64,000 nucleotides of DNA from Candidatus Omnitrophota bacterium (GCA_030649895.1 JAUSEX010000020.1:23109-87108), one strand, 5' to 3'; positions 6,203 to 44,971 are shown, counted from the stretch's first letter. The notes: generated from the sequence alone by a model not told the origin. A program made the numbers and translations.

Positions 6203-8461
6203 TTGAGCAAGGATAGAAAAGATCTCATGGTTTCAATAGGTTTGTTTGTCCTGGCGCTGTTACTATTGGCCGGGATGATTTCCTACTCGTCTTACGATAT
6301 CGGTTTCGAGACATCCACCCCTAATATACATATCCGCAATTATATAGGAATAACAGGCGCATATACTGCGTGGGCTATATTCAAGCTGATAGGCTATGCC
6401 GGATTTTTTATCCCGTTTCTCTTTATTGTATGGGGCATAGGGATTCTGGCAGAGAGGCTGACCGGAAAACTATTATACAGAATCCTTGGAATTTTATTTT
6501 TATTTTCAGCCAGTTCTGCGTTTTTCAGCTTGACGGCAAGGCCTGATTCGGTTTTGATGGTTGCAAGAGGCGGGCTTTTAGGGTATGTATTAGCGGACAG
6601 GTTTTTGCTGGATTATCTTGGGGCTATAGGCGGGTACATAGTTACGGTAAGTTTAACAATACTGGCGCTTTTAGTAGCCACAGAATTTCTAATAGTGCCT
6701 GTAATCTCTATTTTATTAATGAAAACATGGGCTATAGCGGATAAGATAGGCAGGCAAAAAAGAGAAAAAGGCGTTACCGGTCATGCAAAAACTGAAAAAT
6801 TTGTCAGTGGCCCGAGATTGAGGCCTGCTGTGAAGGTGGAAAAAGCAGCTCAAGGCTCAAGGCTCAAGGCTCAAGGGGAAGAGATAGAAGACAAAAAAGA
6901 GACCAATTCTAAGGACAGGCCGAGGATAAATATAATGTCGAAGCCTGCGGCTAAACCTAAACCCGCGCCTGCAAAAGCAGTAAAGCTTGAGCCGAGAGTC
7001 GTAGGCGATTATAAGCTTCCAAGCCTTGATTTATTGGACTCTCCCGTATTTAAGCCGGGAAGTATTTTTGGAGAAAATCTGGAAGAAAGCGCGAGAATAC
7101 TTGAAGATACGTTAAGGGATTTTGGAATAGAGTCAAAGGTCATTGATATAAGCAAGGGACCTGTTATCACAAGGTATGAGTTGCAGCCCGCGCCTGGGGT
7201 GAAAGTGAACAGAATCACTAGCCTTAACGATGACATAGCCCTTACCATGAAGGCAACCACCGTGAGGATAGTGGCGCCTATACCCGGAAAATCATGCGTC
7301 GGCATAGAAGTGCCTAACGCGGATACCTCAATGGTTTTCTTGAGGGAAATATTGGAATCCAGCGAGTTTCAGAAGATGGCGGCTTCTTCAAAGCTTGCAA
7401 TGGCTTTAGGAAAAGATATCTCAGGTAAATCTGTCGTAACGGATCTTGGAGACATGCCTCATCTTTTAATAGCGGGCACTACCGGTTCAGGAAAAACTGT
7501 TTGCGTGAATTCCTTGATAATGAGCATGGTCTATAACGCTACGCCTGAAGAATTGAAATTTTTAATGGTTGACCCTAAGATGGTGGAACTTGCTATATAT
7601 AATGGACTGCCGCATTTATTGTGCCCTGTTGTTACTGACGCTAAAAAAGTCGCAGGCGCGCTTGGGTGGGTTGTAGGCGAAATGGAAGCAAGATATAAAA
7701 TGCTGGCCAAGATAGCCGCGAGGAACATAACTTCATTTAATCAAAAATCAGAAGAAAAGCTCCCTTACATAGTTGTCATAATAGACGAATTGGCGGACCT
7801 TATGATGGTTGCCCAGGAAGATATCGAGAACGCTATTACGAGACTAGCCCAACTTTCAAGGGCGGTTGGCATTCATATGATACTCGCTACGCAAAGGCCG
7901 TCAGTGGATGTGGTAACCGGCGTAATAAAGGCGAATTTTCCTGCAAGGATCTCGTTTAAGGTTGCCTCAAAGGTTGATTCCAGGACAGTTCTTGATATGA
8001 ACGGCGCAGATAAGCTGCTGGGAAAAGGCGATATGTTATTCTTGGAACCGGGAAGCCCCAAGCCTGTAAGGGCTCAAGGCACGTATCTTACGGACCCTGA
8101 GATAGAAAAGGTCGTAAATTTTATAAAAGCCCAGCAGGAACCGGTATATGACAATGAGATACTCGAGCACCAGAAAAAAAGCGTTTCAGGAAGAGGCGGT
8201 TTTGAAAAAGATGATTTTTTTGAAGAAGCAGTGCAGATGGTGCTTGAAACAGGCCAGGCGTCTGTTTCAATGCTTCAGAGAAGATTAAGGCTTGGCTATA
8301 CGAGGGCTGCCAGGATAGTGGACGCGATGGAAGAAGAAGGCATAATAGGCCCTTTCAGAGGCTCTAAGCCCAGAGAGATATTGATACAGGAATACCAGCC
8401 AAAAGAAGAAGAGGCTGTTGCTAAAAAAGAAGAAGAAAACCAGGAACAGATATCTAGCTAA
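6203..8461 (+). CDS. ftsK: DNA translocase FtsK. The start could instead be ATG 6227.
   Basis: N-terminal TM helices and a Pro/Lys/Ala-rich linker. FtsK/SpoIIIE ATPase with GTTGSGKTV Walker A, then a C-terminal gamma domain (QASVSMLQRRLRLGYTRAARIVDAMEEEGIIGP). Contains an in-frame GCTCAAG x4 heptamer repeat at 6848-6875. Confidence 0.92.
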   Translation: MSKDRKDLMVSIGLFVLALLLLAGMISYSSYDIGFETSTPNIHIRNYIGITGAYTAWAIFKLIGYAGFFIPFLFIVWGIGILAERLTGKLLYRILGILFLFSASSAFFSLTARPDSVLMVARGGLLGYVLADRFLLDYLGAIGGYIVTVSLTILALLVATEFLIVPVISILLMKTWAIADKIGRQKREKGVTGHAKTEKFVSGPRLRPAVKVEKAAQGSRLKAQGEEIEDKKETNSKDRPRINIMSKPAAKPKPAPAKAVKLEPRVVGDYKLPSLDLLDSPVFKPGSIFGENLEESARILEDTLRDFGIESKVIDISKGPVITRYELQPAPGVKVNRITSLNDDIALTMKATTVRIVAPIPGKSCVGIEVPNADTSMVFLREILESSEFQKMAASSKLAMALGKDISGKSVVTDLGDMPHLLIAGTTGSGKTVCVNSLIMSMVYNATPEELKFLMVDPKMVELAIYNGLPHLLCPVVTDAKKVAGALGWVVGEMEARYKMLAKIAARNITSFNQKSEEKLPYIVVIIDELADLMMVAQEDIENAITRLAQLSRAVGIHMILATQRPSVDVVTGVIKANFPARISFKVASKVDSRTVLDMNGADKLLGKGDMLFLEPGSPKPVRAQGTYLTDPEIEKVVNFIKAQQEPVYDNEILEHQKKSVSGRGGFEKDDFFEEAVQMVLETGQASVSMLQRRLRLGYTRAARIVDAMEEEGIIGPFRGSKPREILIQEYQPKEEEAVAKKEEENQEQISS
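6848..6875. repeat. Perfect heptanucleotide tandem repeat (GCTCAAG)x4 inside ftsK
   Basis: Read directly. Encodes AQGSRLKAQG in the FtsK linker. Confidence 0.9.
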
Positions 8462-8462
8462 C

Positions 8463-8515
8463 GCTGTTCGAGCGAATCCTTAGGCCTAGCTCAGGACAGG
8501 TTTCGACTTGCTCGA
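8463..8515. repeat. REP-like element, copy 2, diverged, immediately 3' of ftsK
   Basis: GTTCGAGCGAATCCTTAGGCC...GGACAGGTTTCGACTTGCTCGAA shares the TTCGAGCGA / TTGCTCGAA arms and the GGACAGG core. Confidence 0.5.
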
Positions 8516-8527
8516 AAAATATTAATT

Positions 8528-9319
8528 ATGCCAGAGTCCTTAGGTAAGATATTAAAAAGAGCGAGAGAATCAAAACACCTTTCCCTGGAAGATGTATCCG
8601 AAAGAAGCCGCATACCGAAGCATATTGTCTCAACCATAGAGGATGACCGGCTAGGTGAAATTAAGCCTGTTTTTTATGCAAAAAGTTTTGTAAAAACATA
8701 CGCTGTTTTTTTAGGCGCCCTGAATGAACCCGGCGTAAAAGAATATCTAAGTAGAAATACGCAAGAACCGCAAAAAAAGCAGGAGATAGTCTTAAAGCCC
8801 GCCCCTAAAACCCATGGTGAAAAAATAGATTTTTCCGGCATAGCTAAGTATAAAAATCAGATGATAGCCATAATTATAGGGATATTTGCATTATGGGTGC
8901 TGTCTTTAGCTATTGGCCAGGCTGTTAAATTTGTTAAAAACAGGCCTGTAAAAAAACATGAGAAAACAACCAAGGTTAAAAAAGAGGCTTCCAAGAAAAC
9001 AGAGAAAGAGAAACCAGGGGATGCAATCGCGGTAAAAGACGTAAAAAAAGATGCCTCCGGCGGGAAATCTAGTTTTGTGGAATTGGAGATTTTCGCTTCC
9101 GATAATACATGGCTCCAGGTGACAGGCGACGGAGAAATTGTGTTTACGGGGTTGTTTAAAAAAGGCGGTAAAGATATTTGGAAGGCGAAAAAAGAAATTA
9201 AACTGGAAGCGGGCAATTCAGGCGTTGTTAAAATAAATGTAAATGGAAAACCTGCGGATTTTTCTGGTAAAAAAGGCGAAAAAAAAGAAATTATAATTAC
9301 GAAAGATGGAATAAAGTAA
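8528..9319 (+). CDS. rodZ: RodZ-like cytoskeleton protein (HTH-XRE, one TM, C-terminal DUF4115-like domain)
   Basis: N-terminal XRE HTH (LGKILKRARESKHLSLEDVSERSRIPKHIVSTIE), one TM segment (MIAIIIGIFALWVLSLAIG), a Lys-rich linker and a beta-rich C-terminal domain. Confidence 0.65.
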   Translation: MPESLGKILKRARESKHLSLEDVSERSRIPKHIVSTIEDDRLGEIKPVFYAKSFVKTYAVFLGALNEPGVKEYLSRNTQEPQKKQEIVLKPAPKTHGEKIDFSGIAKYKNQMIAIIIGIFALWVLSLAIGQAVKFVKNRPVKKHEKTTKVKKEASKKTEKEKPGDAIAVKDVKKDASGGKSSFVELEIFASDNTWLQVTGDGEIVFTGLFKKGGKDIWKAKKEIKLEAGNSGVVKINVNGKPADFSGKKGEKKEIIITKDGIK

Positions 9320-9335
9320 TGCCCCTCCCGCCCTA

Positions 9336-10601
9336 ATGCAAAAAACAATCAGCGTTATAAGCCTTGGTTGTCCGAGAAATCTCGTAGATTCTGAAAAACT
9401 CGTGTCTAATTTTATAAAAAAGGGTTACAGGTTTCATGAGGGTATATTAAATTCTGATACTGTAATCGTGAATACGTGCGCTTTTATAGAAGACGCCAAG
9501 AGAGAGTCGATAGACAGTATTCTTAAAGTAATAGACGCCAAGAAAGCAGGCCGCGTTAAAAAGGTTATAGTGGCGGGCTGTTTATCGGAGAGATATAGAA
9601 ATGAACTGGCGGATGACTTAAGAGAGGTGGATGAGTTTAGAGGGGTCCTGAATTTCGATGAATGCGGGGGGCGGTCGCGGCCGTCTGCCGTAAGGCTTAC
9701 GCCAAGACACTATGCGTATGTCAAGATTTCAGAAGGGTGCGCCAACAGGTGCGCTTATTGCGTGATACCTTATTTAAAAGGTAACTATAAAAGCAGGGCT
9801 ATAAGGCCTATAGTTAACGAGGTAGCGCAATTAATCGATAAAGGCGCGAGAGAGATTATTTTAGTAGGCCAGGACACTTCTTTATACGGGATAGATTTGT
9901 ATGGAAAAAAGAGACTGGGAGGCCTGTTAAAAGAGTTAGTTAAGATTTCAAAAGATGCGTGGATAAGATTATTGTACCTGCATCCGGCGAATTTAGATGA
10001 AGAAATTATCAAGGTTATAAGGGATAATAAAAATATATGCAGGTATATAGATTTGCCACTTGAGCATATTAATGATAGAATATTAAATAAGATGCGCAGG
10101 AGGATAAATAAAAAGGAGATAGCGTCTCTTGTAGAGCTTATAAGAAAAGAAATACCGGGTGTAGGCATAAGGACTTCATTTATAGTAGGTTTTCCTGGAG
10201 AAACGGAAAAAGAATTCAAAGAGCTGGCGTCTTTCGTGAAAGAGAAAAAATTTGAGAGGCTCGGTGTTTTTAAATATTCAAAGGAAGAAGGCACCCCGGC
10301 CTATTCGTACAAAAACCAGATCTCAGAAAAAGACAAAGAAAGAAGATTTAACAGGTTGATGTTGGAGCAAAAGGGCGTGTCCGTAAAAATAAACGAAGGT
10401 TTGGTGGGCAAGGTGCTGAAAGTGCTTGCAGAGGAAAAAGGTAAGGATTATTATATAGGCAGGACAGAATACGATGCGCCTGAAATAGACGGACTTGTGT
10501 ATATTAAAGGCAAAGATTTGAAGATAGGGAATTTTTATAATATCAGAATAACCGATGCGTATGAATATGACCTTGTAGGTAATTATGAATCTGGCGAATA
10601 A
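9336..10601 (+). CDS. rimO: Ribosomal protein S12 methylthiotransferase RimO (MiaB-family radical SAM)
   Basis: N-terminal ISLGCPRNLVDSE, radical SAM CANRCAYCVIP, a C-terminal TRAM domain. About 420 aa, typical of RimO rather than MiaB. Confidence 0.7.
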   Translation: MQKTISVISLGCPRNLVDSEKLVSNFIKKGYRFHEGILNSDTVIVNTCAFIEDAKRESIDSILKVIDAKKAGRVKKVIVAGCLSERYRNELADDLREVDEFRGVLNFDECGGRSRPSAVRLTPRHYAYVKISEGCANRCAYCVIPYLKGNYKSRAIRPIVNEVAQLIDKGAREIILVGQDTSLYGIDLYGKKRLGGLLKELVKISKDAWIRLLYLHPANLDEEIIKVIRDNKNICRYIDLPLEHINDRILNKMRRRINKKEIASLVELIRKEIPGVGIRTSFIVGFPGETEKEFKELASFVKEKKFERLGVFKYSKEEGTPAYSYKNQISEKDKERRFNRLMLEQKGVSVKINEGLVGKVLKVLAEEKGKDYYIGRTEYDAPEIDGLVYIKGKDLKIGNFYNIRITDAYEYDLVGNYESGE

Positions 10602-11151
10602 ACTTACGATTTCCAGGATAATCCTGGCGGCTTTTTTTATATTATTTTTGTTTATAAAAGGCCCTGGAGCCAAGTGCATGGCAATGGCTATTTTTCTGGC
10701 AGCCTGCATAACGGATTATTACGACGGTTATTTTGCCAGGAAGACAGGCAGTGTTACAGCTTTCGGCAAATTAATGGACCCCATAGCGGATAAGATACTT
10801 ATTTTAGGGGCGTTTCTGGCTTTTGTGGAACTGGAGATAGTGCCGGCATGGATGGCTATGATAATCATAGCCAGGGAGCTGGTTATTACAGGGATAAGGA
10901 TACTGGCGCTTTCGCAGAAAAAAGTCCTTGCTGCGGAAACCGGAGGGAAACATAAGACGGTTTCACAGATGGTGGCAGTTATCTCTATATTGGTATTTTT
11001 GATAATAAGGGATATGGGGTTCGGTTTCAGGCATATGGAAGCCTTTGGGACAGCGGTATATTTACTCATGCTTATAACAGTGGGCATGACTCTGACATCG
11101 GGCGTTTCTTATATGCTTAGAAACAAAGACATCTTTATGGGGGATCAATGA
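10585..11151 (+). CDS. pgsA: CDP-diacylglycerol--glycerol-3-phosphate 3-phosphatidyltransferase
   Basis: CDP-alcohol phosphatidyltransferase motif DYYDGYFARKTGSVTAFGKLMDPIADK. Polytopic membrane protein. Confidence 0.8.
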   Translation: MNLANKLTISRIILAAFFILFLFIKGPGAKCMAMAIFLAACITDYYDGYFARKTGSVTAFGKLMDPIADKILILGAFLAFVELEIVPAWMAMIIIARELVITGIRILALSQKKVLAAETGGKHKTVSQMVAVISILVFLIIRDMGFGFRHMEAFGTAVYLLMLITVGMTLTSGVSYMLRNKDIFMGDQ

Positions 11152-11609
11152 GAGACCGTATATATAAAATGATAGCAAGCATTTTTTATATAGGCTATCT
11201 GCCTGTTGCGCCTGGCACGCTTGGGAGCCTTGCCGCGCTTATCCCGTATTATTTTATAAATCATAATCCTGTCATAAACGGGATAGTCATATTGATAATT
11301 ATATTTCTTGGTTTCCTAACATGCGGTAGAGTAGAGAAGATATTCAAAGAAAAAGATCCCGAAGAAATAATCATAGATGAATTCGCAGGCATGTTAATAA
11401 GCTTATATCGTTTGCCTCCCACTATGGGTTATATAGTGGCGGGATTTTTATTGTTCAGATTTTTTGATATAGTAAAACCAAGGCCTCTGAAAAATCTTGA
11501 AAAATTAAAAGGCGGCGTGGGCATAATGTCTGACGATATAGTAGCCGGCGTATATGCAAATATAATACTGCAGCTTGTTTATATGGCGAGCTTATTGTGC
11601 TGGCGTTAA
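11148..11609 (+). CDS. pgpA: Phosphatidylglycerophosphatase A
   Basis: YIGYLPVAPGTLGSLAAL is the PgpA signature. Coupled to pgsA by a 4-nt overlap. Confidence 0.8.
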   Translation: MRDRIYKMIASIFYIGYLPVAPGTLGSLAALIPYYFINHNPVINGIVILIIIFLGFLTCGRVEKIFKEKDPEEIIIDEFAGMLISLYRLPPTMGYIVAGFLLFRFFDIVKPRPLKNLEKLKGGVGIMSDDIVAGVYANIILQLVYMASLLCWR

Positions 11610-11657
11610 TTGTAAACGGGCTGTTGGCTGCGCTGCATGATACAGGAGATCTATAGT

Positions 11658-16396: not shown

Positions 16397-19006
16397 ATGA
16401 ATGTTGACGAGATAAGAGAAAGATATTTAAGTTTTTTTAAGGCAAGAGGCCACAGGATCTATCCGAGCGATTCGCTTGTGCCGGCTAATGATCCGTCGCT
16501 TTTGTTTACAGGCGCTGGCATGAACCAGTTTAAGGAAGAATTCCTGGGCAGGGTTAAGGGGTCGGCTAGGGCGGCTACGTGCCAGAAATGCATCAGGACG
16601 GGAGATTTGAAAAACGTAGGCAGGACAGCTGGGCATCATACATTTTTTGAAATGCTGGGCAATTTTTCTTTCGGGGATTATTTTAAGAAAGACGCTATCT
16701 TATGGGCGTGGGAATTTCTTGTAAAAGAGCTTGGCATTAAAGAAGAAGATTTATGGATTTCTGTCTATAAGGAGGATAAAGAGGCGTATGAGATATGGAG
16801 GGATACGGTAAAAATCCCGGAGCGGAAGATTTTAAAGTTAGGCGAAAAAGATAATTTCTGGCCGTCCAATGCCCCCAGCGACGGGCCTGACGGACCATGC
16901 GGCCCGTGTTCCGAGATATTTTTCGGCGGGCCTGACGGCGCAGAGATATGGAATCTTGTTTTTACGCAATTTGACAGAAAAGACGGAGGCAGATTAGAGC
17001 CGCTGCCCTGCAAGAATATAGATACCGGCATGGGCCTGGAAAGAATTGCCAGGGTAATGCAGGGCAAGAAGACGAATTTTGAGATAGATTCTTTTGTAAC
17101 TATCATAGAAGCTATAATAAACCTATCCCGTTCTCCGAACGGGAACGGAGAAGAAGACCTTTCTGTTCCCGTTCGGAGAACGGGAACCGGTCAAAATGTG
17201 AATGCGATTGCGGACCATATAAGGGCTGTGACTTTTGCAATATCTGACGGGGTCCTGCCTTCAAATGAAGAAAGGGGTTATGTAATACGAAAACTTATAA
17301 GGAAGGCATTTTGGTACGGGAGAAGCCTGGGCATTGACAAGCCCTTTTTATACAAGATAGTCCCTGTGGTGGCGCAAGTTATGAAAAGGCCTTATCCTGA
17401 AGTTGCGGATCACAGGGAGAGTATAAGCCAGATAGTGATGGAAGAGGAAAAAAGATTTAAAAATACAATAGACGAAGGTACCGAAAGATTGAAAACAATG
17501 CTGACCGAATCCAAGGAATCAGGCGTTTTATCTGGAGAGCATATATTTAAATTGTATGACACTTACGGATTTCCATGTGAATTAACGCAGGAGATAGCAG
17601 GCGTTGAAAATATAAAAGTGGATATAGAGGGTTTTAAAGCGCTTATGGAAAACCAGCGCTCTATATCAAAACAAGGGAGTAAGATCGCGGGCAATATATT
17701 TAACGTGGAAGGGAACATCAATATAAAGCTGCCCGATGCCGCTCGTTTTATAGAAGATAAGGAAGACATAAAAACCCAGGTAGTTCAAATAATTTCAGAA
17801 GGTGACTTGAAAAATGAGATAGGCAAAAGGGACAAGGCCAGCATTTTTTTAAAAGAAACTGTTTTTTATGGCGAAAAAGGCGGGCAGGTAGGCGATAAAG
17901 GGGTAATTTTAAAAGACGAAAAGATAATCGCGGACGTGATAAACGTTATTGATATAGCAGGCAGGGCGCAGCATGAAATAGAGATGAAAGAAGGTGTTTT
18001 AAAAACCGGGGACAGCGTTACCGCAAAGGTTGATATCGGCCGCAGGGAAGACATAAAGAAAAACCACACCGCTACGCACCTTCTGCATAATGCACTGAGA
18101 AAGGTTTTGGGCATGCACGTAAAACAGGCAGGGTCCATGGTAGCGCCGGACAGGCTGCGTTTTGATTTTTCGCATTTTAAGGCAGTCACAAAAGAAGAGC
18201 TTTTAAGAATAGAAGAGATAGTAAATGAGAACATAAGGAAAGATTCCGTGGTCAGCATAGATGAGCTGAGCATGGAAGAGGCTAAGAAAAAAGATGTAAT
18301 AGCGCTTTTCGGAGAGAAATACGGGGATGTGGTGAGGATGGTGTCCGCGGGCGATTATTCCAGAGAGTTATGCGGCGGGACTCATGTAAAAAGGACAGGC
18401 GAAATAGGCGTTTTTAAAATTATCTCCGAGTCTTCTATCGCCAGCGGGATGAGAAGGATCGAAGCTGTTACAGGTAGAACAGCTTATGAGCGGATAAAAC
18501 AGGAAGAGGCTGTTATAAAGGATATTGCGCGGGAATTAAATGTAAAACCGGAGGATATAGCTAAGGAAATAGAAAAATTGGCAAACAGATTAAAACAGAT
18601 GGAAAAAACCCTCGAAGTTTTTATCAATAAAAACGCTCAGGATAACGTAAATAGCCTTTTTGGATCGATGAAAAAAATAAAAGGCATCGATGTGATAATC
18701 GGCAGCATTAAAAATGCAGATTCTTCTTTATTGAGAAAAAACGCGGACCTGTTAAGAGACAGGCTTGTAAACGGTATATTTATGCTTGCGGCTGAAGCGG
18801 ACGGAAAGATCGCGATTATAGTAGGCGCTGGAAAATCGCTTCAGCCCGGAAAGATCGATGCGGTGAAAATTTTAAATGATATAGGTGCTGATTTTGGGAT
18901 AAAAGGCGGTGGCAGGCAGGATTTTGCTCAAGCAGGCAGCCGCTCAGGCCCTAGGCTTCAGGATATATTAAAAAAAGCGGAAGGGATTATAGAGGGGTAT
19001 ATATGA
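16397..19006 (+). CDS. alaS: Alanine--tRNA ligase
   Basis: 869-aa canonical AlaRS: catalytic domain, editing-domain HxxxH/CxxxH (HTATHLLH...CGGTHV) and C-Ala domain. Contains an in-frame 58-nt palindromic element at 17127-17184. Confidence 0.97.
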   Translation: MNVDEIRERYLSFFKARGHRIYPSDSLVPANDPSLLFTGAGMNQFKEEFLGRVKGSARAATCQKCIRTGDLKNVGRTAGHHTFFEMLGNFSFGDYFKKDAILWAWEFLVKELGIKEEDLWISVYKEDKEAYEIWRDTVKIPERKILKLGEKDNFWPSNAPSDGPDGPCGPCSEIFFGGPDGAEIWNLVFTQFDRKDGGRLEPLPCKNIDTGMGLERIARVMQGKKTNFEIDSFVTIIEAIINLSRSPNGNGEEDLSVPVRRTGTGQNVNAIADHIRAVTFAISDGVLPSNEERGYVIRKLIRKAFWYGRSLGIDKPFLYKIVPVVAQVMKRPYPEVADHRESISQIVMEEEKRFKNTIDEGTERLKTMLTESKESGVLSGEHIFKLYDTYGFPCELTQEIAGVENIKVDIEGFKALMENQRSISKQGSKIAGNIFNVEGNINIKLPDAARFIEDKEDIKTQVVQIISEGDLKNEIGKRDKASIFLKETVFYGEKGGQVGDKGVILKDEKIIADVINVIDIAGRAQHEIEMKEGVLKTGDSVTAKVDIGRREDIKKNHTATHLLHNALRKVLGMHVKQAGSMVAPDRLRFDFSHFKAVTKEELLRIEEIVNENIRKDSVVSIDELSMEEAKKKDVIALFGEKYGDVVRMVSAGDYSRELCGGTHVKRTGEIGVFKIISESSIASGMRRIEAVTGRTAYERIKQEEAVIKDIARELNVKPEDIAKEIEKLANRLKQMEKTLEVFINKNAQDNVNSLFGSMKKIKGIDVIIGSIKNADSSLLRKNADLLRDRLVNGIFMLAAEADGKIAIIVGAGKSLQPGKIDAVKILNDIGADFGIKGGGRQDFAQAGSRSGPRLQDILKKAEGIIEGYI
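17127..17184. repeat. Double-hairpin palindromic element CCCGTTCTCCGAACGGGAAC-N18-GTTCCCGTTCGGAGAACGGG inserted in frame in alaS
   Basis: The two 20-nt arms are perfect reverse complements, and each arm is itself a hairpin (CCCGTTC/GAACGGG). Encodes SPNGNGEEDLSVPVRRTGT within AlaRS. A relative lies at 21474. Confidence 0.8.
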
Positions 19007-20223: not shown

Positions 20224-20225
20224 TC

Positions 20226-20853: not shown

Positions 20854-21468
20854 ATGATAGTTATTATTGATTACGGGATGGGGAATTTAAGGAGCGTTCA
20901 GAAGGCGTTTGAAAGATTCTGTTCAAATGTTATAGTGAGCCGGTCTGCGAAGGATATTCAAAAGGCGGATAAGATAGTATTGCCAGGCGTAGGGGCTTTT
21001 AAGGTGGCAATGGATGAGCTGGAGAAAAGAGATTTAGTGGGGCCGATAAAAGATTCAATAAAAAATGGCAGGCCTTTTTTAGGCATATGCCTTGGGCTGC
21101 AGCTCTTGTTTTCCGAGAGCGAAGAGGGCGGGAAGATAAAAGGCCTGGATATAATAAAGGGCAAGGTTAAGAGATTTAGAGAACAACGCGGATTAAAGAT
21201 ACCGCATATGGGGTGGAATAATATTAAGCTTAATGCTAAATGCTCGAGGCTCAAGGCGATGAATGAAATCAAGAGCGGGAGTTATATGTATTTTGTGCAC
21301 TCGTATTATGCGGCGCCGAAAGACAAAAAAGTGATTTTATGCGAAACAGATTATGGCGGAAACTTTACCTCGGGCATTCATAAAGATAATGTATACGGTT
21401 TTCAATTTCATCCTGAAAAAAGCCAGGGAGCTGGTCTAAAGATAATAGAAAACTTCGTTGATTTGTGA
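20854..21468 (+). CDS. hisH: Imidazole glycerol phosphate synthase glutaminase subunit
   Basis: MIVIIDYGMGNLRSV...LPGVGAF...GICLGLQLLF (Cys nucleophile)...HPEKS are class I glutamine amidotransferase motifs. The ORF track begins earlier at an internal Met; ATG 20854 follows the hisB stop. Confidence 0.9.
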   Translation: MIVIIDYGMGNLRSVQKAFERFCSNVIVSRSAKDIQKADKIVLPGVGAFKVAMDELEKRDLVGPIKDSIKNGRPFLGICLGLQLLFSESEEGGKIKGLDIIKGKVKRFREQRGLKIPHMGWNNIKLNAKCSRLKAMNEIKSGSYMYFVHSYYAAPKDKKVILCETDYGGNFTSGIHKDNVYGFQFHPEKSQGAGLKIIENFVDL

Positions 21469-21473
21469 CCGAA

Positions 21474-21517
21474 TCCCGTTCGTCGATCGGGAACTATTTC
21501 CCGATCGACGAACGGGA
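21474..21517. repeat. Palindromic element of the same CCCGTTCG/CGAACGGG family in the hisH-hisA spacer
   Basis: TCCCGTTCGTCGATCGGGAA-CTATT-TCCCGATCGACGAACGGGA is an 18-bp perfect IR with a 5-nt loop. Confidence 0.75.
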
Positions 21518-21528
21518 TAGGTGTAAAT

Positions 21529-23411: not shown

Positions 23412-24929
23412 TTGGAGCGGTTGAAAATGCATTATCCGTCAAAACAAGAATTTGTAAAATTAGCTGAGAAAGCTAATATAATACCTGTCTATAAAGAAAT
23501 ATTGGCAGATACATTGACGCCTGTTTCCGCCTTTCAGAAAATAGGCGGAGGATATTCGTATCTGCTGGAGTCTGTCGAAGGCCAGGAGAAGATAGCAAGA
23601 TTTTCATTTATAGGCATAGAGCCTTCTCTGATATTAAAAAGCAAAGGGAATTCTATCGAGATAAATAAAAACGGCAGGGTTAAAAAATATTTTACAGACG
23701 ATCCGTTAAAAGAAATTGAGAAAGTAATGAGTTCTTTTAAGGCAGCTGAAGTAAAAGGTCTTCCGAGGTTTTCAGGAGGCATGGTGGGGTATATGGGGTA
23801 CGATATGGTGAGGTTTTTTGAAAACCTGCCTGATAAAAATCCAGATAACTTAAAGATCCCGGATTCTGTATTCATGATGGCGGATAGCCTCGTGATATTT
23901 GATCACTCTACGCATAAGGTTAAGATAGTGATAAACGCGTATCTGGCTCAGGGCTTCCCCCGGCTTCGCTCGGGACAGGCAAGGCTCAAGGCTCAAGGGA
24001 TATACGAAAAAGCGGTAGAAAAGATAGAAGAGATTATAAAGAAATTAAACAAGCCTGAGAAAAAGCAAAAGGCAAAAATAAAAAGCAAAAAGCGCAAGAT
24101 GGAATCAAACTTTACAAAAAAAGAATTCGAAGGCTTGGTTAAAAGAGCGAAGGAATACATAAGGGCCGGGGATATAATACAGGTTGTGCCGTCGCAAAGA
24201 TTTCATACAAGGCTGAACTGCGGGCCGTTTGATGTTTACCGCTCTCTCAGGTCTTTAAATCCGTCGCCTTACATGTATTATTTAAATTTCGATGAACTGC
24301 AAATCGTAGGGTCGTCTCCTGAGCTTTTAGTAAGGTGCGAGGATGGTATAGTTGAGACCAGGCCCATAGCAGGCACGAGGCCGAGAGGCAGAAGCGAAGC
24401 TGAGGATAAAAAATTAGAGGAAGAACTTTTAGCTGACGCGAAAGAAAGGGCGGAGCATGTGATGCTGGTGGATCTTGGCAGAAATGATATAGGCAGGGTC
24501 TGCAAGCCTGGCAGCGTCAAGGTAACGGATTTTATGTTTATAGAAAAGTATTCTCATGTTATGCATATTGTTAGTAACTGCAAGGGCGTTTTGGATGAGA
24601 ATAAGAATTCGTTTGATGTTTTACGGGCGTGTTTTCCGGCGGGCACCGTATCAGGCGCGCCAAAGGTCAGGGCAATGGAAATAATAGACGAGCTTGAGAA
24701 TACAAGAAGAGGTTATTACGCCGGAGCAGTGGGGTATTTCAGCTTTTCCGGGAATATGGACACATGTATAACTATAAGGACGATGCTAGTCAAAGGGAAA
24801 GATGCTTTTATCCAATCAGGCGGAGGAATAGTGGCTGACTCTATCCCGTCTAAGGAATATCAGGAGACAGTGAATAAAGCAAAAGCAATGGTTAAGGCAA
24901 TTGAGATAGCCGAGAAAGGATTAGATTAA
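23412..24929 (+). CDS. trpE: Anthranilate synthase component I
   Basis: 505-aa chorismate-binding enzyme (SPELLVR...IAGTRPRG...GAVGYF). Carries an in-frame insert of a roughly 50-nt GC-rich repeat at 23948-23999. Confidence 0.9.
23948..23999. repeat. Roughly 50-nt GC-rich mosaic element with GCTCAAG heptamer repeats, in frame in trpE
   Basis: CAGGGCTTCCCCCGGCTTCGCTCGGGACAGGCAAGGCTCAAGGCTCAAGGG is near-identical to 45481-45534 in nadC. Translates [15 protein letters not shown]. Confidence 0.75.
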
Positions 24930-26701: not shown

Positions 26702-26704
26702 TTT

Positions 26705-26790
26705 GGTTCTCGACTTGGCCTTTGGCCTTGCTCGAACAATATTTTTCGAGAGGATATTTTCGATTATACATGTAAGCCTAGTCGAAAAGA
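26705..26790. repeat. REP-like element, copy 4, in the trpD-trpC spacer
   Basis: GGTTCTCGACTTGGCCTTTGGCCTTGCTCGAACAATATTTTTCGAG...GCCTAGTCGAAAAG. The track ORF 26703-26903 here is an artefact of the repeat. Confidence 0.7.
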
Positions 26791-39280: not shown

Positions 39281-40504
39281 ATGGGAAAACGTTTGATTGT
39301 TCAAAAATATGGCGGCAGTTCTGTAGCGAATACAGACAGGATAAAAAGTGTAGCGAACCGCATCGCAAAATACAAAAAGCAAGGCTATAATGTGGTGGTG
39401 ATAGTTTCCGCTTTAGGCGATACTACCGACGAATTGTTGGAACTTGCGGGACAGATAACGGATAAGCCAAGCGATAGAGAATTAGATATGCTCATATCTA
39501 CTGGCGAACAGGTGTCTGTGGCGCTTCTGGCAATGGCGCTACATAAGATAGGGGTTGATGCAATATCTTTTACAGGCCCTCAGGTAGGCATAATAACGGA
39601 CCGCACTCACACAAAGGCTAAGATCCTGAAGATAAGCGCTGACAGGATCAAGGGGCAGATCAATAAGGGCAGGGTTGTTATAGTGGCGGGCTTTCAGGGT
39701 ATGAACGCTGATCAGGAGATCACTACTCTTGGCAGGGGCGGTTCGGACCTTACCGCTGTCGCTATTGCTACAACGCTAAATGCTGACATGTGCGAGATAT
39801 ATACTGACGTTGAAGGTGTCTATACAGCTGATCCCAGGATCGTAAAAGACGCGAAAAAACTTTCCGTTATCAGTTATGAAGAGATGCTTGAGCTGGCTTC
39901 TCTGGGCGCGCAGGTTATGCAGGCCAGGTCCATGGAGGTCGCGAAAAAATATTCAGTATCGCTGCATATACGGTCAAGTTTTACGAATGAAGAAGGGACG
40001 ATTATTTCAAAGGAGGTTAAGGCGATGGAAGATGTTCTTGTGAGCGGGGTGACTGCAAATAAAGGCGAGGCAAAGGTGACTATCTGCGATGTCCCTGACA
40101 GGCCCGGAATAGCAGCGAAAATATTCACGGATATAGCAAGGCATGATATAAACGTTGATATGATAATTCAGAATATAAGCAGAAAAGGTTACACGGATCT
40201 CTCTTTTACGGTACCCGTGGCTGAGCTTAATAAGGCGAAAGATATGATGTCTAAAATAGTGAGATCCGTGAAGGCGAAAGGCGTGGTGTATAATAATGAG
40301 ATTGCCAAGGTTTCTATAGTCGGCGTAGGCATGAAGACGCATTCCGGGGTCGCGGCGAAGATGTTCGGGGCACTGGCCTCAAAAAAGATAAACATAGACA
40401 TGATTTCAACCTCTGAAATCAAGATATCGTGCGTGATAAATAAAAGATATGCGGATAAAGCGGTGATCGCGCTGCATAAGGCGTTTGGATTGGGGAAGAA
40501 ATAG
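39281..40504 (+). CDS. lysC: Aspartate kinase (monofunctional, two ACT domains)
   Basis: LIVQKYGGSSV...VVVIVSALGDTTDEL and tandem C-terminal ACT domains. The ORF track starts 41 codons earlier in the same frame (39158); I call ATG 39281. Confidence 0.9.
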   Translation: MGKRLIVQKYGGSSVANTDRIKSVANRIAKYKKQGYNVVVIVSALGDTTDELLELAGQITDKPSDRELDMLISTGEQVSVALLAMALHKIGVDAISFTGPQVGIITDRTHTKAKILKISADRIKGQINKGRVVIVAGFQGMNADQEITTLGRGGSDLTAVAIATTLNADMCEIYTDVEGVYTADPRIVKDAKKLSVISYEEMLELASLGAQVMQARSMEVAKKYSVSLHIRSSFTNEEGTIISKEVKAMEDVLVSGVTANKGEAKVTICDVPDRPGIAAKIFTDIARHDINVDMIIQNISRKGYTDLSFTVPVAELNKAKDMMSKIVRSVKAKGVVYNNEIAKVSIVGVGMKTHSGVAAKMFGALASKKINIDMISTSEIKISCVINKRYADKAVIALHKAFGLGKK

Positions 40505-40506
40505 GA

Positions 40507-40600
40507 TTCGCTTCTTGACTTGGCCGATTTGTGGCCTCGCTCGAAGAATAATATTGTTCGAGCGGACACCAATGTTTTGTTTATAAGCCCAGTCGAAAAC
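40507..40600. repeat. REP-like element, copy 6, in the lysC-cimA spacer
   Basis: TTCGCTTCTTGACTTGGCCGATTTGTGGCCTCGCTCGAAGAATAATATTGTTCGAGCGGACACC...GCCCAGTCGAAAAC. Confidence 0.65.
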
Positions 40601-40617
40601 TATTAGAGGAAAATAAG

Positions 40618-42189
40618 ATGCGAGAAATCAAGATTTACGATACTACATTGAGGGATGGGTCGCAGGGAGAAGGCATCTCTTTCTCTGTAATGGACAAGAT
40701 AAAGATCGCTAAGAGATTAGATGATTTCGGGGTTCATTATATAGAAGGAGGATGGCCGGGCTCTAACCCGAAGGATATGGAATTCTTCAGGCAGGCAAAA
40801 AAGCTTAAATTTAAGAATTCCGAGATTGTAGCATTCGGCAGCACTAGGCGCCCAAAGATTAGCCCTCAAGACGACGAAAACCTTCACGCGCTTATAAAGT
40901 CAGGCGCGAGTTCGGTTGCAATTTTTGGCAAGACGTGGGATATGCATGTAATAGACGTCCTCAAGGTTTCTTTGCAGGAAAATCTTAAAATGATCAAGGA
41001 TACCGTAGAATTTCTGAAGTCTAAAAAGCTGTACGTGTTTTACGACGCAGAGCACTTTTTTGACGGGTATCTGAAAAATAAAGATTATAGCCTGGAAACC
41101 CTGCGTTCCGCTGTAAGCGCAGGATGCGATGCAGTGGTTTTGTGCGACACGAACGGCGGGATGCTCACAAACGAATTAGCTGTTATTGTCAGGACGATTT
41201 CCAGCGAATGCCACGATGTCAACCTTGGTATCCACACTCATAATGATGGCGGATTAGCAGTGGCGAATACTATAGTTGCGGTTGAAGCAGGCGCAAATAT
41301 TGTTCAGGGGACTGTAAATGGTTACGGCGAAAGGTGCGGTAATGCAGACCTGTGCGCTATTATTCCAAATCTTCAGCTAAAGCTGGGATATAAATGCGTC
41401 TCTGAATCCAGGCTTAAAGAATTAACCGAGGTGTCCAGGTATGTGAGCGAGATCTCAAACATGAAACCTCAGGATAATCAGCCTTTTACGGGCAGGAGCG
41501 CTTTTGCCCATAAAGGAGGGGTTCATATCAATGCGGTCATGAAAAATCCCGTGTCTTATGAGCATATGGCGCCTGAAAAAATCGGTAACCACAGAAGGAT
41601 CCTGGTTTCTGAATTATCCGGCAAGACCAGTATTATCCTAAGGGCGAAAGAGATGGAGCTGGATCTTACAAAGGATGATCCAAAGACAAAGAAAATATTA
41701 AGGTTGGTCCAATTAATGGAAAACCAGGGCTATCATTTTGAAGCAGCTGACGGGTCTTTTGAGCTCTTGATGAAAAAGGCATTAAAGAAATATAAGCCAT
41801 TTTTTACTCTTGAGGGATTTAAGGTGAGCATTGAAAAAAGAGAGGACGATACTCTCATCTCAGAAGCTATTATAAAGCTTAACGTAAATAAAAAAGAAGA
41901 ACATACTGCGGCTTTGGGCGACGGGCCTGTAAACGCTTTGGATAACGCGTTGCGCAAAGCCCTTGCGAAGTTTTATCCTACGCTTTCCAAGATGCACTTG
42001 TCTGATTTCAAAGTAAGGGTGCTGGATGAAAAGGCAGGCACTGCCGCTAAAGTAAGAGTCCTTATCCAATCCCAGGATGAAAATAGTTCCTGGGGCACTG
42101 TAGGAGTTTCTGAAAATATTATAGAAGCTAGCTGGCAGGCCCTTGTGGATAGCGTGGAATACAAGCTATTAAAAGATAAGGTCAGATAG
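40618..42189 (+). CDS. cimA: (R)-citramalate synthase, CimA-type (LeuA family)
   Basis: IYDTTLRDGSQGEGISFS...IEGGWPGSNPKD, HTHND..G.A.AN, and LeuA-dimer C-terminal domain. The lysC-cimA adjacency recalls Geobacter. Confidence 0.65.
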   Translation: MREIKIYDTTLRDGSQGEGISFSVMDKIKIAKRLDDFGVHYIEGGWPGSNPKDMEFFRQAKKLKFKNSEIVAFGSTRRPKISPQDDENLHALIKSGASSVAIFGKTWDMHVIDVLKVSLQENLKMIKDTVEFLKSKKLYVFYDAEHFFDGYLKNKDYSLETLRSAVSAGCDAVVLCDTNGGMLTNELAVIVRTISSECHDVNLGIHTHNDGGLAVANTIVAVEAGANIVQGTVNGYGERCGNADLCAIIPNLQLKLGYKCVSESRLKELTEVSRYVSEISNMKPQDNQPFTGRSAFAHKGGVHINAVMKNPVSYEHMAPEKIGNHRRILVSELSGKTSIILRAKEMELDLTKDDPKTKKILRLVQLMENQGYHFEAADGSFELLMKKALKKYKPFFTLEGFKVSIEKREDDTLISEAIIKLNVNKKEEHTAALGDGPVNALDNALRKALAKFYPTLSKMHLSDFKVRVLDEKAGTAAKVRVLIQSQDENSSWGTVGVSENIIEASWQALVDSVEYKLLKDKVR

Positions 42190-42196
42190 TCTCTCC

Positions 42197-44971
42197 ATGA
42201 AAGACATACCTCCAAGATATAATCCAAAAGATTACGAAGAATCCATTTATTCTAAATGGGAAAAGAGCGGTTTTTTTCATCAGGAGCCCGACCTTTCGAA
42301 AAAACCTTTTACGATAGTGATTCCTCCTCCCAATGTTACGGGTATTCTTCATATGGGGCACGCGTTAAATAATACAATACAGGATATCCTGGTAAGATGG
42401 AAGAGGATGCAGGGGTTTGCAAGTCTCTGGGTGCCTGGCACTGACCACGCAGGCATAGCCACCCAAAACGTAGTGGAGAAGAGCCTGGCCAGGAAAGGCG
42501 TAACAAGGCAATTGTTAGGCAGAGAAAAGTTCGTAGACGAGGTCTGGAAATGGCGGGAGCAGTATGGCGATACCATTATAATGCAGCTTAAAAGGCTGGG
42601 CGCGTCATGCGATTGGGAAAGAACCCGCTTTACTATGGATAAAGGCCTTTCGGAAGCCGTGCTTGAAGCGTTTGTCCGGCTTTACAATAAAGGGTTGATT
42701 TACAGGGGAAATTATATAATCAACTGGTGCCCCAGATGCCAGACAGCCCTTTCTGATGAAGAAGCGCCGCATCAGGACGTGGAAGGGAAACTGTATTACA
42801 TATTGTATCCATTCAAGGAGGCTCAAGGCGATACCCTTCAGCCTTCAGCCTTCAGCCTTCAGCCCGGTATAGTTGTGGCGACTACAAGGCCCGAGACCAT
42901 GCTTGGCGATGTGGCTGTGGCAGTAAACCCGAAAGACAGGAGATATAAAAAACTGATAGGCGCAAAACTTATGCTGCCTATCGTGGAAAAAGAAATAGAA
43001 ATTATTGCGGATGATTTTGTGGATAAAAAATTTGGCACAGGCGCTGTAAAGGTTACGCCTGCGCACGATCCCAATGATTTTGAAATGGCAAAGCGGCACG
43101 GGCTTGAACCTGTCAGGATTATGAGGCCCGATGGAAAAATGAATGAAAACGCCTCTAGGTTTAACGGAATGGACAGGTTTGAGGCGAGAAAATTAATAGT
43201 AGCTGAACTTGAAGAAAAGAAGCTGTTAATAAAAATAGAAAAGCATGATCACGCAGTAGGGCATTGTTACAGGTGCAACACCGTGATAGAGCCGTATCTG
43301 TCTTTGCAATGGTTTGTTAAGATGAAGCCATTGGCGGAACCTGCGATAGAGGCCGTAAAAAGCGGAAAGATTAAATTTTATCCAAAGAGATGGACAAAGG
43401 TTTATCTTAACTGGATGGAGAATATAAGGGACTGGTGCGTTTCAAGGCAGATATGGTGGGGGCACCGTTTGCCTGTTTACTATTGCATGGATTGCGCGAA
43501 ACAGGCAAGTGAACTCAAGGCTGATAGAGATTCTCTTGAGCCCGCAGCCTGCAGCCTGCAGCCAAATATCGGCGTTATAGTATCTAAGGTTAAACCCGAT
43601 AAATGTCCTGTCTGCGGCGGAATAGATCTGAGGCAGGATGAAGATGTGCTGGATACGTGGTTTTCGTCCTGGCTCTGGCCGTTCTCAACGCTTGGGTGGC
43701 CTGAAGAAACAAAAGACCTGGAATATTTTTATCCGACATCCGCGCTGGTGACAGCGCCTGAGATATTATTTTTTTGGGTAGCCAGAATGATAATGTCCGG
43801 AATAGAATTTAAAAAAGATATACCTTTCAGCGATGTTTATATTCATGGAACAGTGAGAGATGCGGCAGGAAAGAAAATGTCCAAATCTCTGGGGAACATA
43901 ATAGACCCGCTGGAAATAATAGACGGATTTAGCGCAGATGCTTTAAGATTCAGCATTATATCTATAACATCTGCCGGGCAGGATGTATTTTTATCTAAAG
44001 AAAAATTCGAGATAGGCAGAAATTTTGCAAATAAGATATGGAATGCGTCGCGGTTCGTGCTGATGAACGTTGCGGCGGATGACTTCTCGACTCGGCCTGC
44101 GGCCTCGCTTGGAGAATATAGCGCCCCAGGGACGAGTCTGGAGCTATCCATCGCTGATAAGTGGATTTTAAGCAGATTAAGCAGGACAATAGACGCGACG
44201 ACAAAGGCGTTGAAGATTTACAGGTTTAATGAAGCAGAGGGCCTGGTTTATGATTTTTTCTGGCACGATTTTTGCGACTGGTATGTGGAGATGGTTAAGC
44301 CGCAGATTATGACTCAGGGCTCCGGACCAGAGGACGGGGGAGCGAAAGATGTTTTGATACATGTGCTGGAGGATTCGCTGAAGTTGCTACATCCTTTTAT
44401 GCCGTTCGTGACAGAAGCTATCTGGCAGAATATCAAGGAAAGAGAAAGTATAATGGTTTCAAAATGGCCTGAGCCTGAAAAGCGCTACGTAAATAAACAG
44501 ATAGAATCCGATATAGAGGTGATGAAGGAGGCTATTGTGAATATCAGGAATATACGTTCCGATATGAACATACCCTATTCAAAAAAGCTTACAGTGAATA
44601 TTGTCCCGTTGAAGCCTGGGGTTGAAGCTATCCTGTCTGGCAGCGTGAAATATATCAAGAGTTTGGCGCAGCTTGAGAATCTGATAATAGACGCTAAACT
44701 GAAGAAACCAAAAAGTTCCCTGAGCGCAGTTACTGAGAATTTCAATATGTTTGTACCTCTGGAGGGCGTTATAGATATAGAAGCAGAAAAGGCCAGGCTT
44801 TTTAAGAAGCAAGACGCGTTAAAACAGCAGCTTTTATTGACTGGAAAAAGGCTTAAAGATAAGAATTTCATGGGCAATGCGCCTGATAATGTAATAAACG
44901 CGGAGCAGGAGAAGGCTGAAAAAATCAAAGAGCAGATAGGCAGGCTGGGGAAAACAATCAAGGATTTATGA
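42197..44971 (+). CDS. valS: Valine--tRNA ligase
   Basis: PPPNVTGILHMGHA, ATTRPETMLGD, KMSKSLGN, and C-terminal coiled coil. Contains two in-frame heptamer-repeat segments (42834-42861 and 43544-43563). Confidence 0.97.
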   Translation: MKDIPPRYNPKDYEESIYSKWEKSGFFHQEPDLSKKPFTIVIPPPNVTGILHMGHALNNTIQDILVRWKRMQGFASLWVPGTDHAGIATQNVVEKSLARKGVTRQLLGREKFVDEVWKWREQYGDTIIMQLKRLGASCDWERTRFTMDKGLSEAVLEAFVRLYNKGLIYRGNYIINWCPRCQTALSDEEAPHQDVEGKLYYILYPFKEAQGDTLQPSAFSLQPGIVVATTRPETMLGDVAVAVNPKDRRYKKLIGAKLMLPIVEKEIEIIADDFVDKKFGTGAVKVTPAHDPNDFEMAKRHGLEPVRIMRPDGKMNENASRFNGMDRFEARKLIVAELEEKKLLIKIEKHDHAVGHCYRCNTVIEPYLSLQWFVKMKPLAEPAIEAVKSGKIKFYPKRWTKVYLNWMENIRDWCVSRQIWWGHRLPVYYCMDCAKQASELKADRDSLEPAACSLQPNIGVIVSKVKPDKCPVCGGIDLRQDEDVLDTWFSSWLWPFSTLGWPEETKDLEYFYPTSALVTAPEILFFWVARMIMSGIEFKKDIPFSDVYIHGTVRDAAGKKMSKSLGNIIDPLEIIDGFSADALRFSIISITSAGQDVFLSKEKFEIGRNFANKIWNASRFVLMNVAADDFSTRPAASLGEYSAPGTSLELSIADKWILSRLSRTIDATTKALKIYRFNEAEGLVYDFFWHDFCDWYVEMVKPQIMTQGSGPEDGGAKDVLIHVLEDSLKLLHPFMPFVTEAIWQNIKERESIMVSKWPEPEKRYVNKQIESDIEVMKEAIVNIRNIRSDMNIPYSKKLTVNIVPLKPGVEAILSGSVKYIKSLAQLENLIIDAKLKKPKSSLSAVTENFNMFVPLEGVIDIEAEKARLFKKQDALKQQLLLTGKRLKDKNFMGNAPDNVINAEQEKAEKIKEQIGRLGKTIKDL
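42834..42861. repeat. Heptanucleotide tandem repeat (CCTTCAG-type, x4, one imperfect) inside valS. It is the reverse complement of CTGAAGG.
   Basis: CCCTTCA GCCTTCA GCCTTCA GCCTTCA read directly. Preceded by GGCTCAAGG. Confidence 0.9.
43544..43563. repeat. Heptanucleotide tandem repeat (GCAGCCT, about x3) inside valS, preceded by CTCAAGGCTGA
   Basis: CCCGCAGCCT GCAGCCT GCAGCC read directly. Confidence 0.85.

Follow-up and report, generated by a model that had tools for sequence, protein, structure and literature searches.

Short heptanucleotide arrays lie in frame inside core genes—ftsK, valS, trpE and nadC—of a Candidatus Omnitrophota metagenome-assembled genome (MAG), where they probably represent tolerated inserts of a small heptamer-module family with a nested core resembling small dispersed repeats (SDRs). 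We assign this reading, in which the modules would be selfish or neutral, a probability of roughly 0.6. All positions given below are coordinates of the window, i.e., the whole 64,000-nt stretch that was analysed; handles beginning with L denote related contigs and those beginning with P denote proteins. The basic module would consist of about four tandem heptamers spanning ~30 nt, here (GGCTCAA)4GG, and two variants of it are seen: one with a second, inverted and near-complementary arm, (CCTTCAG)n or (GCCTGCA)n, and another with a 24-nt core nested at GGCT^CAA. Such modules may be gained, lost or replaced whole, with drift by point mutation between these events, and the inserts would be translated as extra loop residues, apparently without a switching function.

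Period-7 arrays and their reading frames

Four perfect period-7 arrays were recovered by Tandem Repeats Finder (TRF) and by an exact scan. They are given here together with the composite structures and inserts to which they belong, the host genes having been identified with NCBIfam.

6848-6876, + strand: perfect array (GCTCAAG)x4.1, equal to GG(CTCAAGG)4, in ftsK (FtsK, 6203-8461); encodes AAQGSRLKAQG, aa 216-225
21241-21257, + strand: degenerate 2.4-unit array GCTCGAG GCTCAAG GC inside hisH; putative insert
23945-23998, + strand: TrpE composite, GGCTCAG, GGCT / 24-nt core / CAA, GGCTCAA GGCTCAA GG
23956-23979, + strand: 24-nt core of the TrpE composite, TCCCCCGGCTTCGCTCGGGACAGG
23980-23998: perfect array CAAGGCT x2.7 in trpE (TrpE, 23412-24929)
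42820-42864, + strand: ValS site 1, with left arm GGCTCAAGG (42820-42828), spacer CGATAC and (CCTTCAG)x4.3
42835-42864: perfect array CCTTCAG x4.3 in valS (ValS, 42197-44971)
43499-43570, + strand: ValS site 2, a 72-nt insert between the Cys pairs C430/C433 and C470/C473
43544-43563: perfect array GCAGCCT x2.9 in valS; TRF gives 43539-43563, x3.6, with one mismatch
44072-44110, + strand: ValS site 3, a 39-nt in-frame insert of a non-heptamer repeat family, AADDFSTRPAASL
45481-45535, + strand: NadC composite, GGCTTAA GGCTCAA, GGCT / core (45499-45522) / CAA, GGCTCGA AGG

The number of perfect period-7 arrays of at least 2.7 copies far exceeds expectation—four observed against 0.03 expected from 200 triplet-block shuffles (maximum 1)—and no comparable enrichment was found in such shuffles for the other periods from 5 to 11. 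Their units form one related family, GGCTCAA on the + strand with GGCTGAA and GGCTGCA on the - strand, and units of the GGCTCAA family occur at six loci of the window; the degenerate hisH array may be a decayed or incipient member. All window arrays are intragenic, in frame and in housekeeping genes, and the reading frames of FtsK, TrpE and ValS are intact despite them. An earlier note on this DNA had described heptamer arrays lying inside essential or housekeeping genes, with units that are variants or reverse complements of each other. The arrays proved real by sequence, TRF, exact scan and shuffles, the NCBIfam assignments to FtsK, TrpE and ValS agree with the stated location, and the kinship of the units is borne out by GGCTCAA, GGCTGAA and GGCTGCA. 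The inventory in that note was right about the four arrays and incomplete beyond them, having missed the trpE composite and its nadC copy, the left arm of ValS site 1 and the ValS insert at 44072-44110.

That the gain or loss of a single 7-nt unit would shift the frame, as had also been pointed out, follows directly from the sequence. The accompanying idea that the frame is kept by a chance copy number fares worse: instead, the module lengths of 30, 24, 39 and 72 nt, all multiples of three, point to survivorship. Modules would survive when their lengths are multiples of three, when their units and orientations are stop-free in every frame, when their translation gives a short loop of mostly polar residues, and when the site is a surface loop or inter-domain linker already variable in length among orthologues. 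A heptamer array runs through all three frames every 21 nt, so that a stop codon in any frame closes it. No frame is closed by GGCTCAA, CCTTCAG or GCCTGCA; TTGAGCC, the exact complement of GGCTCAA, includes a TGA. At the loci that were fetched, pairs of (GGCTCAA)n with an inverted arm have CCTTCAG (5) or CCTTGTG (3) as the right arm in long open reading frames (ORFs), and CCTTGAG, CCCTGAG or ACTTGAG, with TGA, outside ORFs. The right arm within ORFs is thus CCTTCAG rather than the perfect complement CCTTGAG because the latter carries TGA. A stop-free arm inside an ORF is a tautology; the informative point is that the arm is the nearest stop-free relative of the complement. A stop-codon argument for repeat orientation has already been published for TAACTGA repeats (PMC4679880). 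Additionally, arrays of at least three units encode a cyclic 7-residue peptide that is the same in any frame—here AQGSRLK, which is small, polar and basic.

Inserts relative to orthologues and the nested core

Comparison with L002, a relative with ~90% protein identity over 11 syntenic genes, identified the repeats as insertions. The only internal indels of at least 4 residues are four inserts in the window—three in ValS (+39, +72 and +39 nt) and one in NadC (+45 nt)—all of them repeat-like and multiples of three in length. The insert sites are indel hot spots, as judged from 30-40 orthologues each. Relatives with 83-89% protein identity carry a 4-unit array at the matching ftsK and trpE positions; a comparison of copy numbers with relatives had been suggested earlier, and these identical ftsK and trpE counts give no sign of slippage. 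Strain-level variation was followed in L126 and L154, independent Logan assemblies (SRR22388083) that are 99.1% and 98.5% identical to the window and cover four of the inserts, the ftsK array and ValS site 1 lying outside their coverage. No gaps were found in them across the trpE composite, ValS sites 2 and 3 and the nadC composite, L126 spanning the first of these and L154 ValS site 2 and the nadC composite, and substitutions numbered 7 in 224 nt of insert (3.1%) versus 49 in 4091 nt elsewhere (1.2%), i.e., ~2.6x as many. The inserts thus drift faster by substitution, without detectable slippage; identical counts of this kind are what the earlier note had itself named as evidence against its reading.

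In FtsK, the array lies in the linker between the 4TM (aa 9-167) and alpha (aa 272-372) domains of Pfam, a linker that is hypervariable among 34 Omnitrophota FtsK sequences. At the matching position, four units are found in the ftsK of L123 (87% identity) and of L125 (84%), differing by point changes, GCTCAAG to GCTGAAG; that of L124 (91%) is devoid of the array. Strain variants with other copy numbers were not found, a search of JGI metagenomes anchored in the flanks of the ftsK array having given 0 matches. As for database records, the best FtsK match in a protein search was only 91% identical, the ValS and TrpE of the window were found at 100% and NadC was retrieved by exact cluster look-up; in the source record, ftsK may be annotated in another way or be missing.

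In the TrpE composite the core interrupts the second of four units, and the whole sits between the Pfam domains Anth_synt_I_N (aa 28-166) and Chorismate_bind (aa 231-484). The corresponding loop of L153 and L120 measures 36 nt and holds an uninterrupted (GGCTCAA)4; that of the window is 60 nt long, which is exactly 24 nt more and indicates that the array is the older part, into which the core was inserted. The (GGCTCAA)4 arrays of L153 and L120 are identical at 30/30 nt, with synonymous third positions 60% identical. L152 has (GCGGAYA)5 at the trpE site, and L151 and L152 are cited for other units or unrecognisable sequence of the same length. A further repeat in trpE, AAAAAGC x5 (78% matches) at 24060-24093, encodes a Lys-rich stretch, and marks a second hot spot of this gene where the orthologues P0260, P0264, P0269, P0283 and P0285 have extra 'SLDFARDK...' inserts; these belong to the core family, in the NadC reading frame.

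The NadC composite duplicates that of trpE, with 85% identity over 52 nt but in another reading frame, and it is missing from the NadC of L002, 45 nt shorter at that point. Scanning metagenomes with the right half of the core yielded six further contigs with a GC content of 38-44%. Together with the two copies of the window and L003, the core is found at ten insertion loci in 12 copies, L148 and L150 having two each in tandem; besides trpE and nadC, seven genes of related metagenomic contigs contain it. All ten loci place it within a long ORF that runs on the same strand, and all ten have GGCTCAA-type units on both sides of it, with nesting at GGCT^CAA. The interrupted array sums to four units at 7/8 of the single-core loci, and the tandem-core loci, L148 and L150, depart from this count. 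The core is near-identical across its ten loci, in differing genes and contigs, and is translated in three frames, LPSTSLGTGKA being one of the products. As its reading frame varies, the core is an entity at the nucleic-acid level and not a selected peptide.

Three inserts are found in ValS. Site 1, at the start of the editing (CP1) domain, encodes AQGDTLQPSAFSLQP; its two arms form an imperfect inverted repeat across the 6-nt spacer, with one C.C mismatch per unit, and it adds 39 nt relative to L002 (42827-42865). Its predicted hairpin of -22 kcal/mol (z -3.7) makes it the sole insert of six that folds better than shuffles. The site 1 array is also present in L001; GGGTCAA is another unit seen in the valS of this contig. 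Site 2 contains CTCAAGG...CTCTTGAGCC followed by the (GCAGCCT)x2.9 array and encodes KQASELKADRDSLEPAACSLQPNI; heptamer units of differing sequence occupy this position in L001, L003 and other orthologues. Site 3 falls between the catalytic and anticodon-binding domains of Pfam, and a longer version of its insert, FSTRPAASLEEY... / FSTRPAASLEEYLKNNIVRARGE..., was found in P0011 and P0024 from two other Omnitrophota. In a broader comparison, 30 Omnitrophota ValS orthologues (872-969 aa) differ mostly at four indel hot spots, with the window arrays in two; other lineages have different low-complexity peptides of 7-residue periodicity at these hot spots, and the closest ValS relatives (85-89% identity) carry nothing at the array sites of the window. 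Sites 1-3 correspond to gaps in the solved structure of Thermus thermophilus ValRS, 1GAX. An AlphaFold model of ValS built with 30 close homologues was poor, with a mean predicted local distance difference test score (pLDDT) of 58.7, and fell below 50 exactly at the four hot spots—dips that lend weak support to the sites being permissive.

Beyond these relatives, the 23-mer (GGCTCAA)3.3 occurs at no fewer than 119 loci of species-representative genomes, in Acidobacteriota, Planctomycetota, Omnitrophota, Armatimonadota, Bacteroidota, Gammaproteobacteria, Cyanobacteria and others. Pairing of GGCTCAA with CCTTCAG recurs in Omnitrophota and Planctomycetales, and pairing with GCCTGCA in Omnitrophota. 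Period 7 accounts for 280/586 TRF rows in ~1 Mb of related loci, where arrays unrelated to GGCTCAA peak at 30-34 nt, and it dominates the tandem repeats of 17 Omnitrophota loci (55 TRF rows). For loci below 50% GC, the median array length is 4.3 units in ORFs (n=26), defined here as stop-free stretches of at least 150 aa, versus 6.1 units outside them (n=33; Mann-Whitney p = 2.5e-4). Ten array-hosting ORFs encode AsnB, a GT4 glycosyltransferase, a polyprenyl synthetase, PyrD, an M20 peptidase, a radical SAM protein, MurG, MurD, LigA and a GltD-like oxidoreductase. Taken together, these enzyme hosts and the length statistics indicate that in-frame arrays of ~4 units are widespread in core genes, and that the repeats expand where they are unconstrained. 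A dense example was seen in L087, a 6.7-kb Omnitrophota contig with ten heptamer arrays of nine units, partly intergenic and partly within a 582-aa ORF, among them several inverted 4+4 pairs (e.g., GTTCGTT x4.3, a 13-nt spacer and CAAYGAA x4.1).

Origin of the modules and competing explanations

Deposition by a small repeat family is supported by the L002 genes that lack the inserts and by the dispersed, nested core, and on both counts the earlier suggestion of recent deposits of a mobile element family broadly holds. Complete modules would have come from other copies in the genome in a single event, whether copy-and-paste, recombination or transposition, since growth from one unit to two, three and four would require frameshifted intermediates in an essential gene.

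Several observations weigh against this view. We infer mobility from distribution alone: the window yielded neither a transposase nor a target-site duplication or terminal inverted repeat, the junctions inspected displayed no consistent repeat or duplication of these kinds (they are ambiguous owing to the repeat itself), and a scan of the nine window ORFs without an obvious housekeeping identity yielded no transposase and only a GIY-YIG protein. Folding does not unite the modules either. A hairpin as their common property was considered and rejected, since ValS sites 2 and 3, trpE, nadC and ftsK do not beat shuffles (z +0.6 and +1.2 for the trpE and nadC composites); with one of six inserts folding, the hairpin is not a general feature. 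Moreover, three composition-matched control heptamer arrays gave 8, 2 and 2 matches in viral contigs versus 6 for GGCTCAA. The notion of GGCTCAA as a single, horizontally spreading, sequence-specific element is weakened accordingly, and if any unit arises this readily, local de novo origin is favoured. A single mobile family is also insufficient to explain why one site has different units in different lineages, as in trpE of L152 and valS of L001. Finally, a neutral passenger from a common ancestor should not stay identical at 30/30 nt while synonymous sites diverge by 40%—a comparison subject to the ascertainment bias described below—so that the explanation still lacks some process of homogenisation, re-seeding or selection.

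The main rival, which has a real if minority chance of being correct, is a local and non-mobile origin: the heptamer would be a favoured slippage unit, and selection would retain short, in-frame and stop-free arrays in permissive loops. As a corollary, the common GGCTCAA unit would reflect the tolerated peptide AQGSRLK and not common descent. Heptanucleotides are the commonest class of long simple sequence repeats (SSRs) in most bacterial genomes according to Mrazek 2007 as cited in PMC4679880 and PMC4692102, and this origin would sit well with the abundance of control arrays in viral contigs, with the many different units in the same genomes and at the same sites, with the expansion of arrays outside ORFs, and with the single cyclic peptide that three or more units encode in whatever frame. 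However, stepwise growth in an essential gene would pass through the frameshifted intermediates mentioned above, the four arrays and both composites of the window share one unit family, and GGCTCAA is repeatedly paired with CCTTCAG or GCCTGCA in Omnitrophota and Planctomycetes. Nor can local slippage make a near-identical core at ten loci in unrelated genes with a fixed nesting point. A local de novo origin under selection can account, then, for how varied the units are, but for neither the core nor the single unit family.

Also rather unlikely, yet worth stating, is an undescribed process other than plain slippage that writes or copies 4-unit modules with their nested core into DNA, essential genes among it, and homogenises them across species. 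Ectopic gene conversion among the hundreds of copies would be one candidate, templated synthesis and site-directed copy-and-paste two others. A process of this kind would explain the sharp 30-nt size mode that many unrelated units share, the fixed nesting at GGCT^CAA and the perfect (GGCTCAA)4 found despite synonymous divergence; if true, it would constitute an unrecognised route to loop insertions in bacterial proteins of several phyla.

We regard as improbable a functional DNA or RNA signal under selection that is merely compatible with translation, e.g., a protein-binding array or an mRNA structure slowing translation at domain boundaries. Array size does peak sharply near four units for many unrelated units, echoing the four-unit peak of GGGAATC repeats (PMC4692102), the sites are often domain boundaries, ValS site 1 forms a strong hairpin, and the identity of (GGCTCAA)4 between lineages with 40% synonymous divergence is of the sort that selection would produce. 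In array-bearing orthologue pairs, identity is 91-93% inside arrays versus 77-79% gene-wide, and ~80-91% versus 53-58% in the rest of the gene at third positions, although these pairs were picked for recognisable or alike arrays and the comparison carries that ascertainment bias. The distribution, on the other hand, is patchy (L002 and L124 lack arrays, and L151 and L152 have the other units or unrecognisable sequence noted above), strain-level substitution is faster in the inserts and not slower, 5/6 inserts fold no better than shuffles, and an Rfam scan matched only two tRNAs and no known RNA family for the inserts. DNA-level conservation as proof of function was dropped in view of the pairs having been chosen by a shared array and of the faster substitution among strains.

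The phase-variation reading raised by the earlier note, in which slipped-strand mispairing of heptamers would toggle the ftsK, valS and trpE frames as a population switch, is very hard to uphold. It is true that a one-unit change shifts the frame, seven not being a multiple of three, that heptanucleotide switches exist in the hmwA promoters of Haemophilus influenzae (PMC8262952), and that arrays outside ORFs are longer and more variable, as though the class slips when unconstrained. Against this, the arrays have only 2.7-4.3 units, compared with 13-24 in hmwA; they lie in length-variable loops of single-copy housekeeping genes; unit counts at orthologous sites are identical in relatives, and the two strain-level contigs show no change in length at the four inserts that they cover; and every instance found is in frame. 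An assembly or sequencing artefact can be practically discounted: the source is a MAG, tandem repeats are prone to mis-assembly and long heptamer arrays do occur at contig ends in several other MAGs, but the present arrays of 19-30 nt are far below read length within intact ORFs, assemblies made independently from another run show unchanged structures in trpE, at valS site 2 and in nadC, substitutions aside, and orthologous arrays recur in unrelated JGI, ENA and NCBI projects.

If the insert reading is correct, heptanucleotide SSRs—thought to be essentially intergenic—also colonise core genes as quantised in-frame modules, in Omnitrophota and other phyla: valS, ftsK, trpE and nadC here, and murG, murD, ligA and pyrD elsewhere. 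They would offer a concrete origin for lineage-specific loop insertions found in conserved proteins, and a tractable system in which to study how very small, transposase-free repeats originate and spread. This reading would also dispose of the seeming paradox of a phase-variation device in a tRNA synthetase. For annotation and phylogenomics, the warning is that strings such as 'AQGSRLKAQG' and 'RLRSGQA' in alignments are repeat-derived and not homologous residues.

Other repeats nearby and known repeat systems

Several further repeats were recorded in the window. An ~80-nt family (83% identical copies and inverted partial copies at 51995-52167, 59108-59173, 59435-59479 and 59731-59812) flanks tRNA-Met (52164-52240) and tRNA-Tyr (59191-59276), and is probably the mobile element family that the earlier note had in mind. 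The last 21 nt of tRNA-Tyr (59256-59276) are copied exactly 141 nt downstream (59397-59417), just before or inside an ORF at 59295-59732 with a GIY-YIG nuclease domain (Pfam E = 2e-14); this duplication looks like an att-type trace of an element integrated at the tRNA. Within alaS, a 60-nt in-frame palindrome at 17126-17185, with 24-nt arms that are 96% complementary, is 86% related to an intergenic palindrome downstream of hisH (21473-21518) with perfect 21-nt arms, TCCCGTTCG...CGAACGGGA. The AlaS proteins of relatives lack parts of it, and the two palindromes constitute a second family, similar to repetitive extragenic palindromic (REP) sequences, that also enters an essential gene. An inverted repeat at 47957-48035, with 35-nt arms 80% complementary and a 9-nt loop, spans the uvrB stop codon and looks like a terminator or a REP element. 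Lastly, a 49-nt repeat found at two gene ends (2705-2753 and 26702-26750, 88% identical) includes TTGGCCT x2.1 and a CTCGAA...TTCGAG hairpin.

L124, the closest ftsK relative, holds additional elements. IS110 and Y1_Tnp (IS200/RAYT-like) genes lie upstream of rpsO at 814-2515, BacA has a 60-nt in-frame insert (5818-5877) that is present in L125 too, and RodZ (8822-9130) has three in-frame inserts, the largest of which, at 171 nt, holds a widespread palindromic element, CTTCGACAAGCTCAGGA ('FDKLR').

Among known systems, the nearest in kind are the tandem heptamers and SDRs of cyanobacteria and the Rickettsia palindromic elements. SDRs are reportedly transposase-free elements embedded in tandem heptamers, with insertions in genes that keep the frame and, in the types SDR4-6, a typical hairpin. 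Those of Nostoc punctiforme, 21-27 nt long, are the subject of Elhai et al. 2008 (Genome Res 18:1484; cited in PMC3116915). By this definition, the 24-nt conserved core of the window resembles SDRs in being dispersed in unrelated loci and embedded in heptamers; it differs in occurring in another host phylum and in being always nested at GGCT^CAA, mostly within a four-unit array. For a hairpin of the SDR4-6 type, folding of the trpE and nadC composites gave no support.

The short tandemly repeated repetitive (STRR) heptanucleotides of heterocystous cyanobacteria (Mazel et al. 1990) are one of several heptamer SSR families; PMC4692102 deals with the GGGAATC repeats of Xanthomonas and Nostoc, and PMC4679880 with the TAACTGA repeats of Beggiatoaceae and cyanobacteria. 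As in STRR and heptamer SSR families generally, the window has tandem 7-nt units scattered over many loci, each genome holding several related ones; a preference for about four units and the occurrence of inverted array pairs match what PMC4692102 describes for heptamer SSRs, and in-ORF orientation is limited by stop codons, as for the TAACTGA repeats (PMC4679880). The window units are not G-rich, so the G-quadruplex account of the four-unit preference is inapplicable here. Unlike STRR and heptamer SSRs, which are mainly intergenic and rare in coding regions, the window arrays are all in frame in housekeeping genes; unlike STRR, moreover, their host is an omnitrophotan and not a cyanobacterium, and the canonical units CCCCAGT, TTGGTCA and CAACAGT differ from those of the window.

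The Rickettsia palindromic elements (RPE; Ogata et al. 2000, reviewed in PMC10969869) offer a parallel in that they are in-frame inserts in unrelated housekeeping genes, encoding surface peptides compatible with fold and function. However, RPE are palindromes of ~100-150 bp with a conserved peptide in one frame, whereas the modules of the window are built of heptamers, measure 24-72 nt and have a core read in three frames, and only one of the inserts is convincingly palindromic. By sequence, host or size, the arrays and their core are not members of STRR or RPE, and they stand apart from SDRs by host. A literature search of incomplete coverage returned no account of essential genes with heptamer modules inserted in frame and in quantised form, or of any such elements in Omnitrophota.

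The hmw1A/hmw2A promoters of H. influenzae, in which 13-24 heptamer units of strain-variable count control a dispensable adhesin (PMC8262952), share with the window a tandem 7-nt unit that is slippage-prone in principle; they differ from the ~4 units in essential genes described here (hosts FtsK, ValS, TrpE and NadC), for which no variation in count was seen. REP/REPIN elements, which are mobilised by REP-associated tyrosine transposases (RAYT, Y1) (PMC3116915), are likewise short, non-autonomous and dispersed, and the close relative L124 has a Y1_Tnp gene (1895-2515)—the only one in ten ORFs scanned, nine of which came from the window, where no RAYT gene was seen. In contrast to REP sequences, which are extragenic palindromic doublets, the heptamer modules are intragenic, tandem and mostly non-palindromic.

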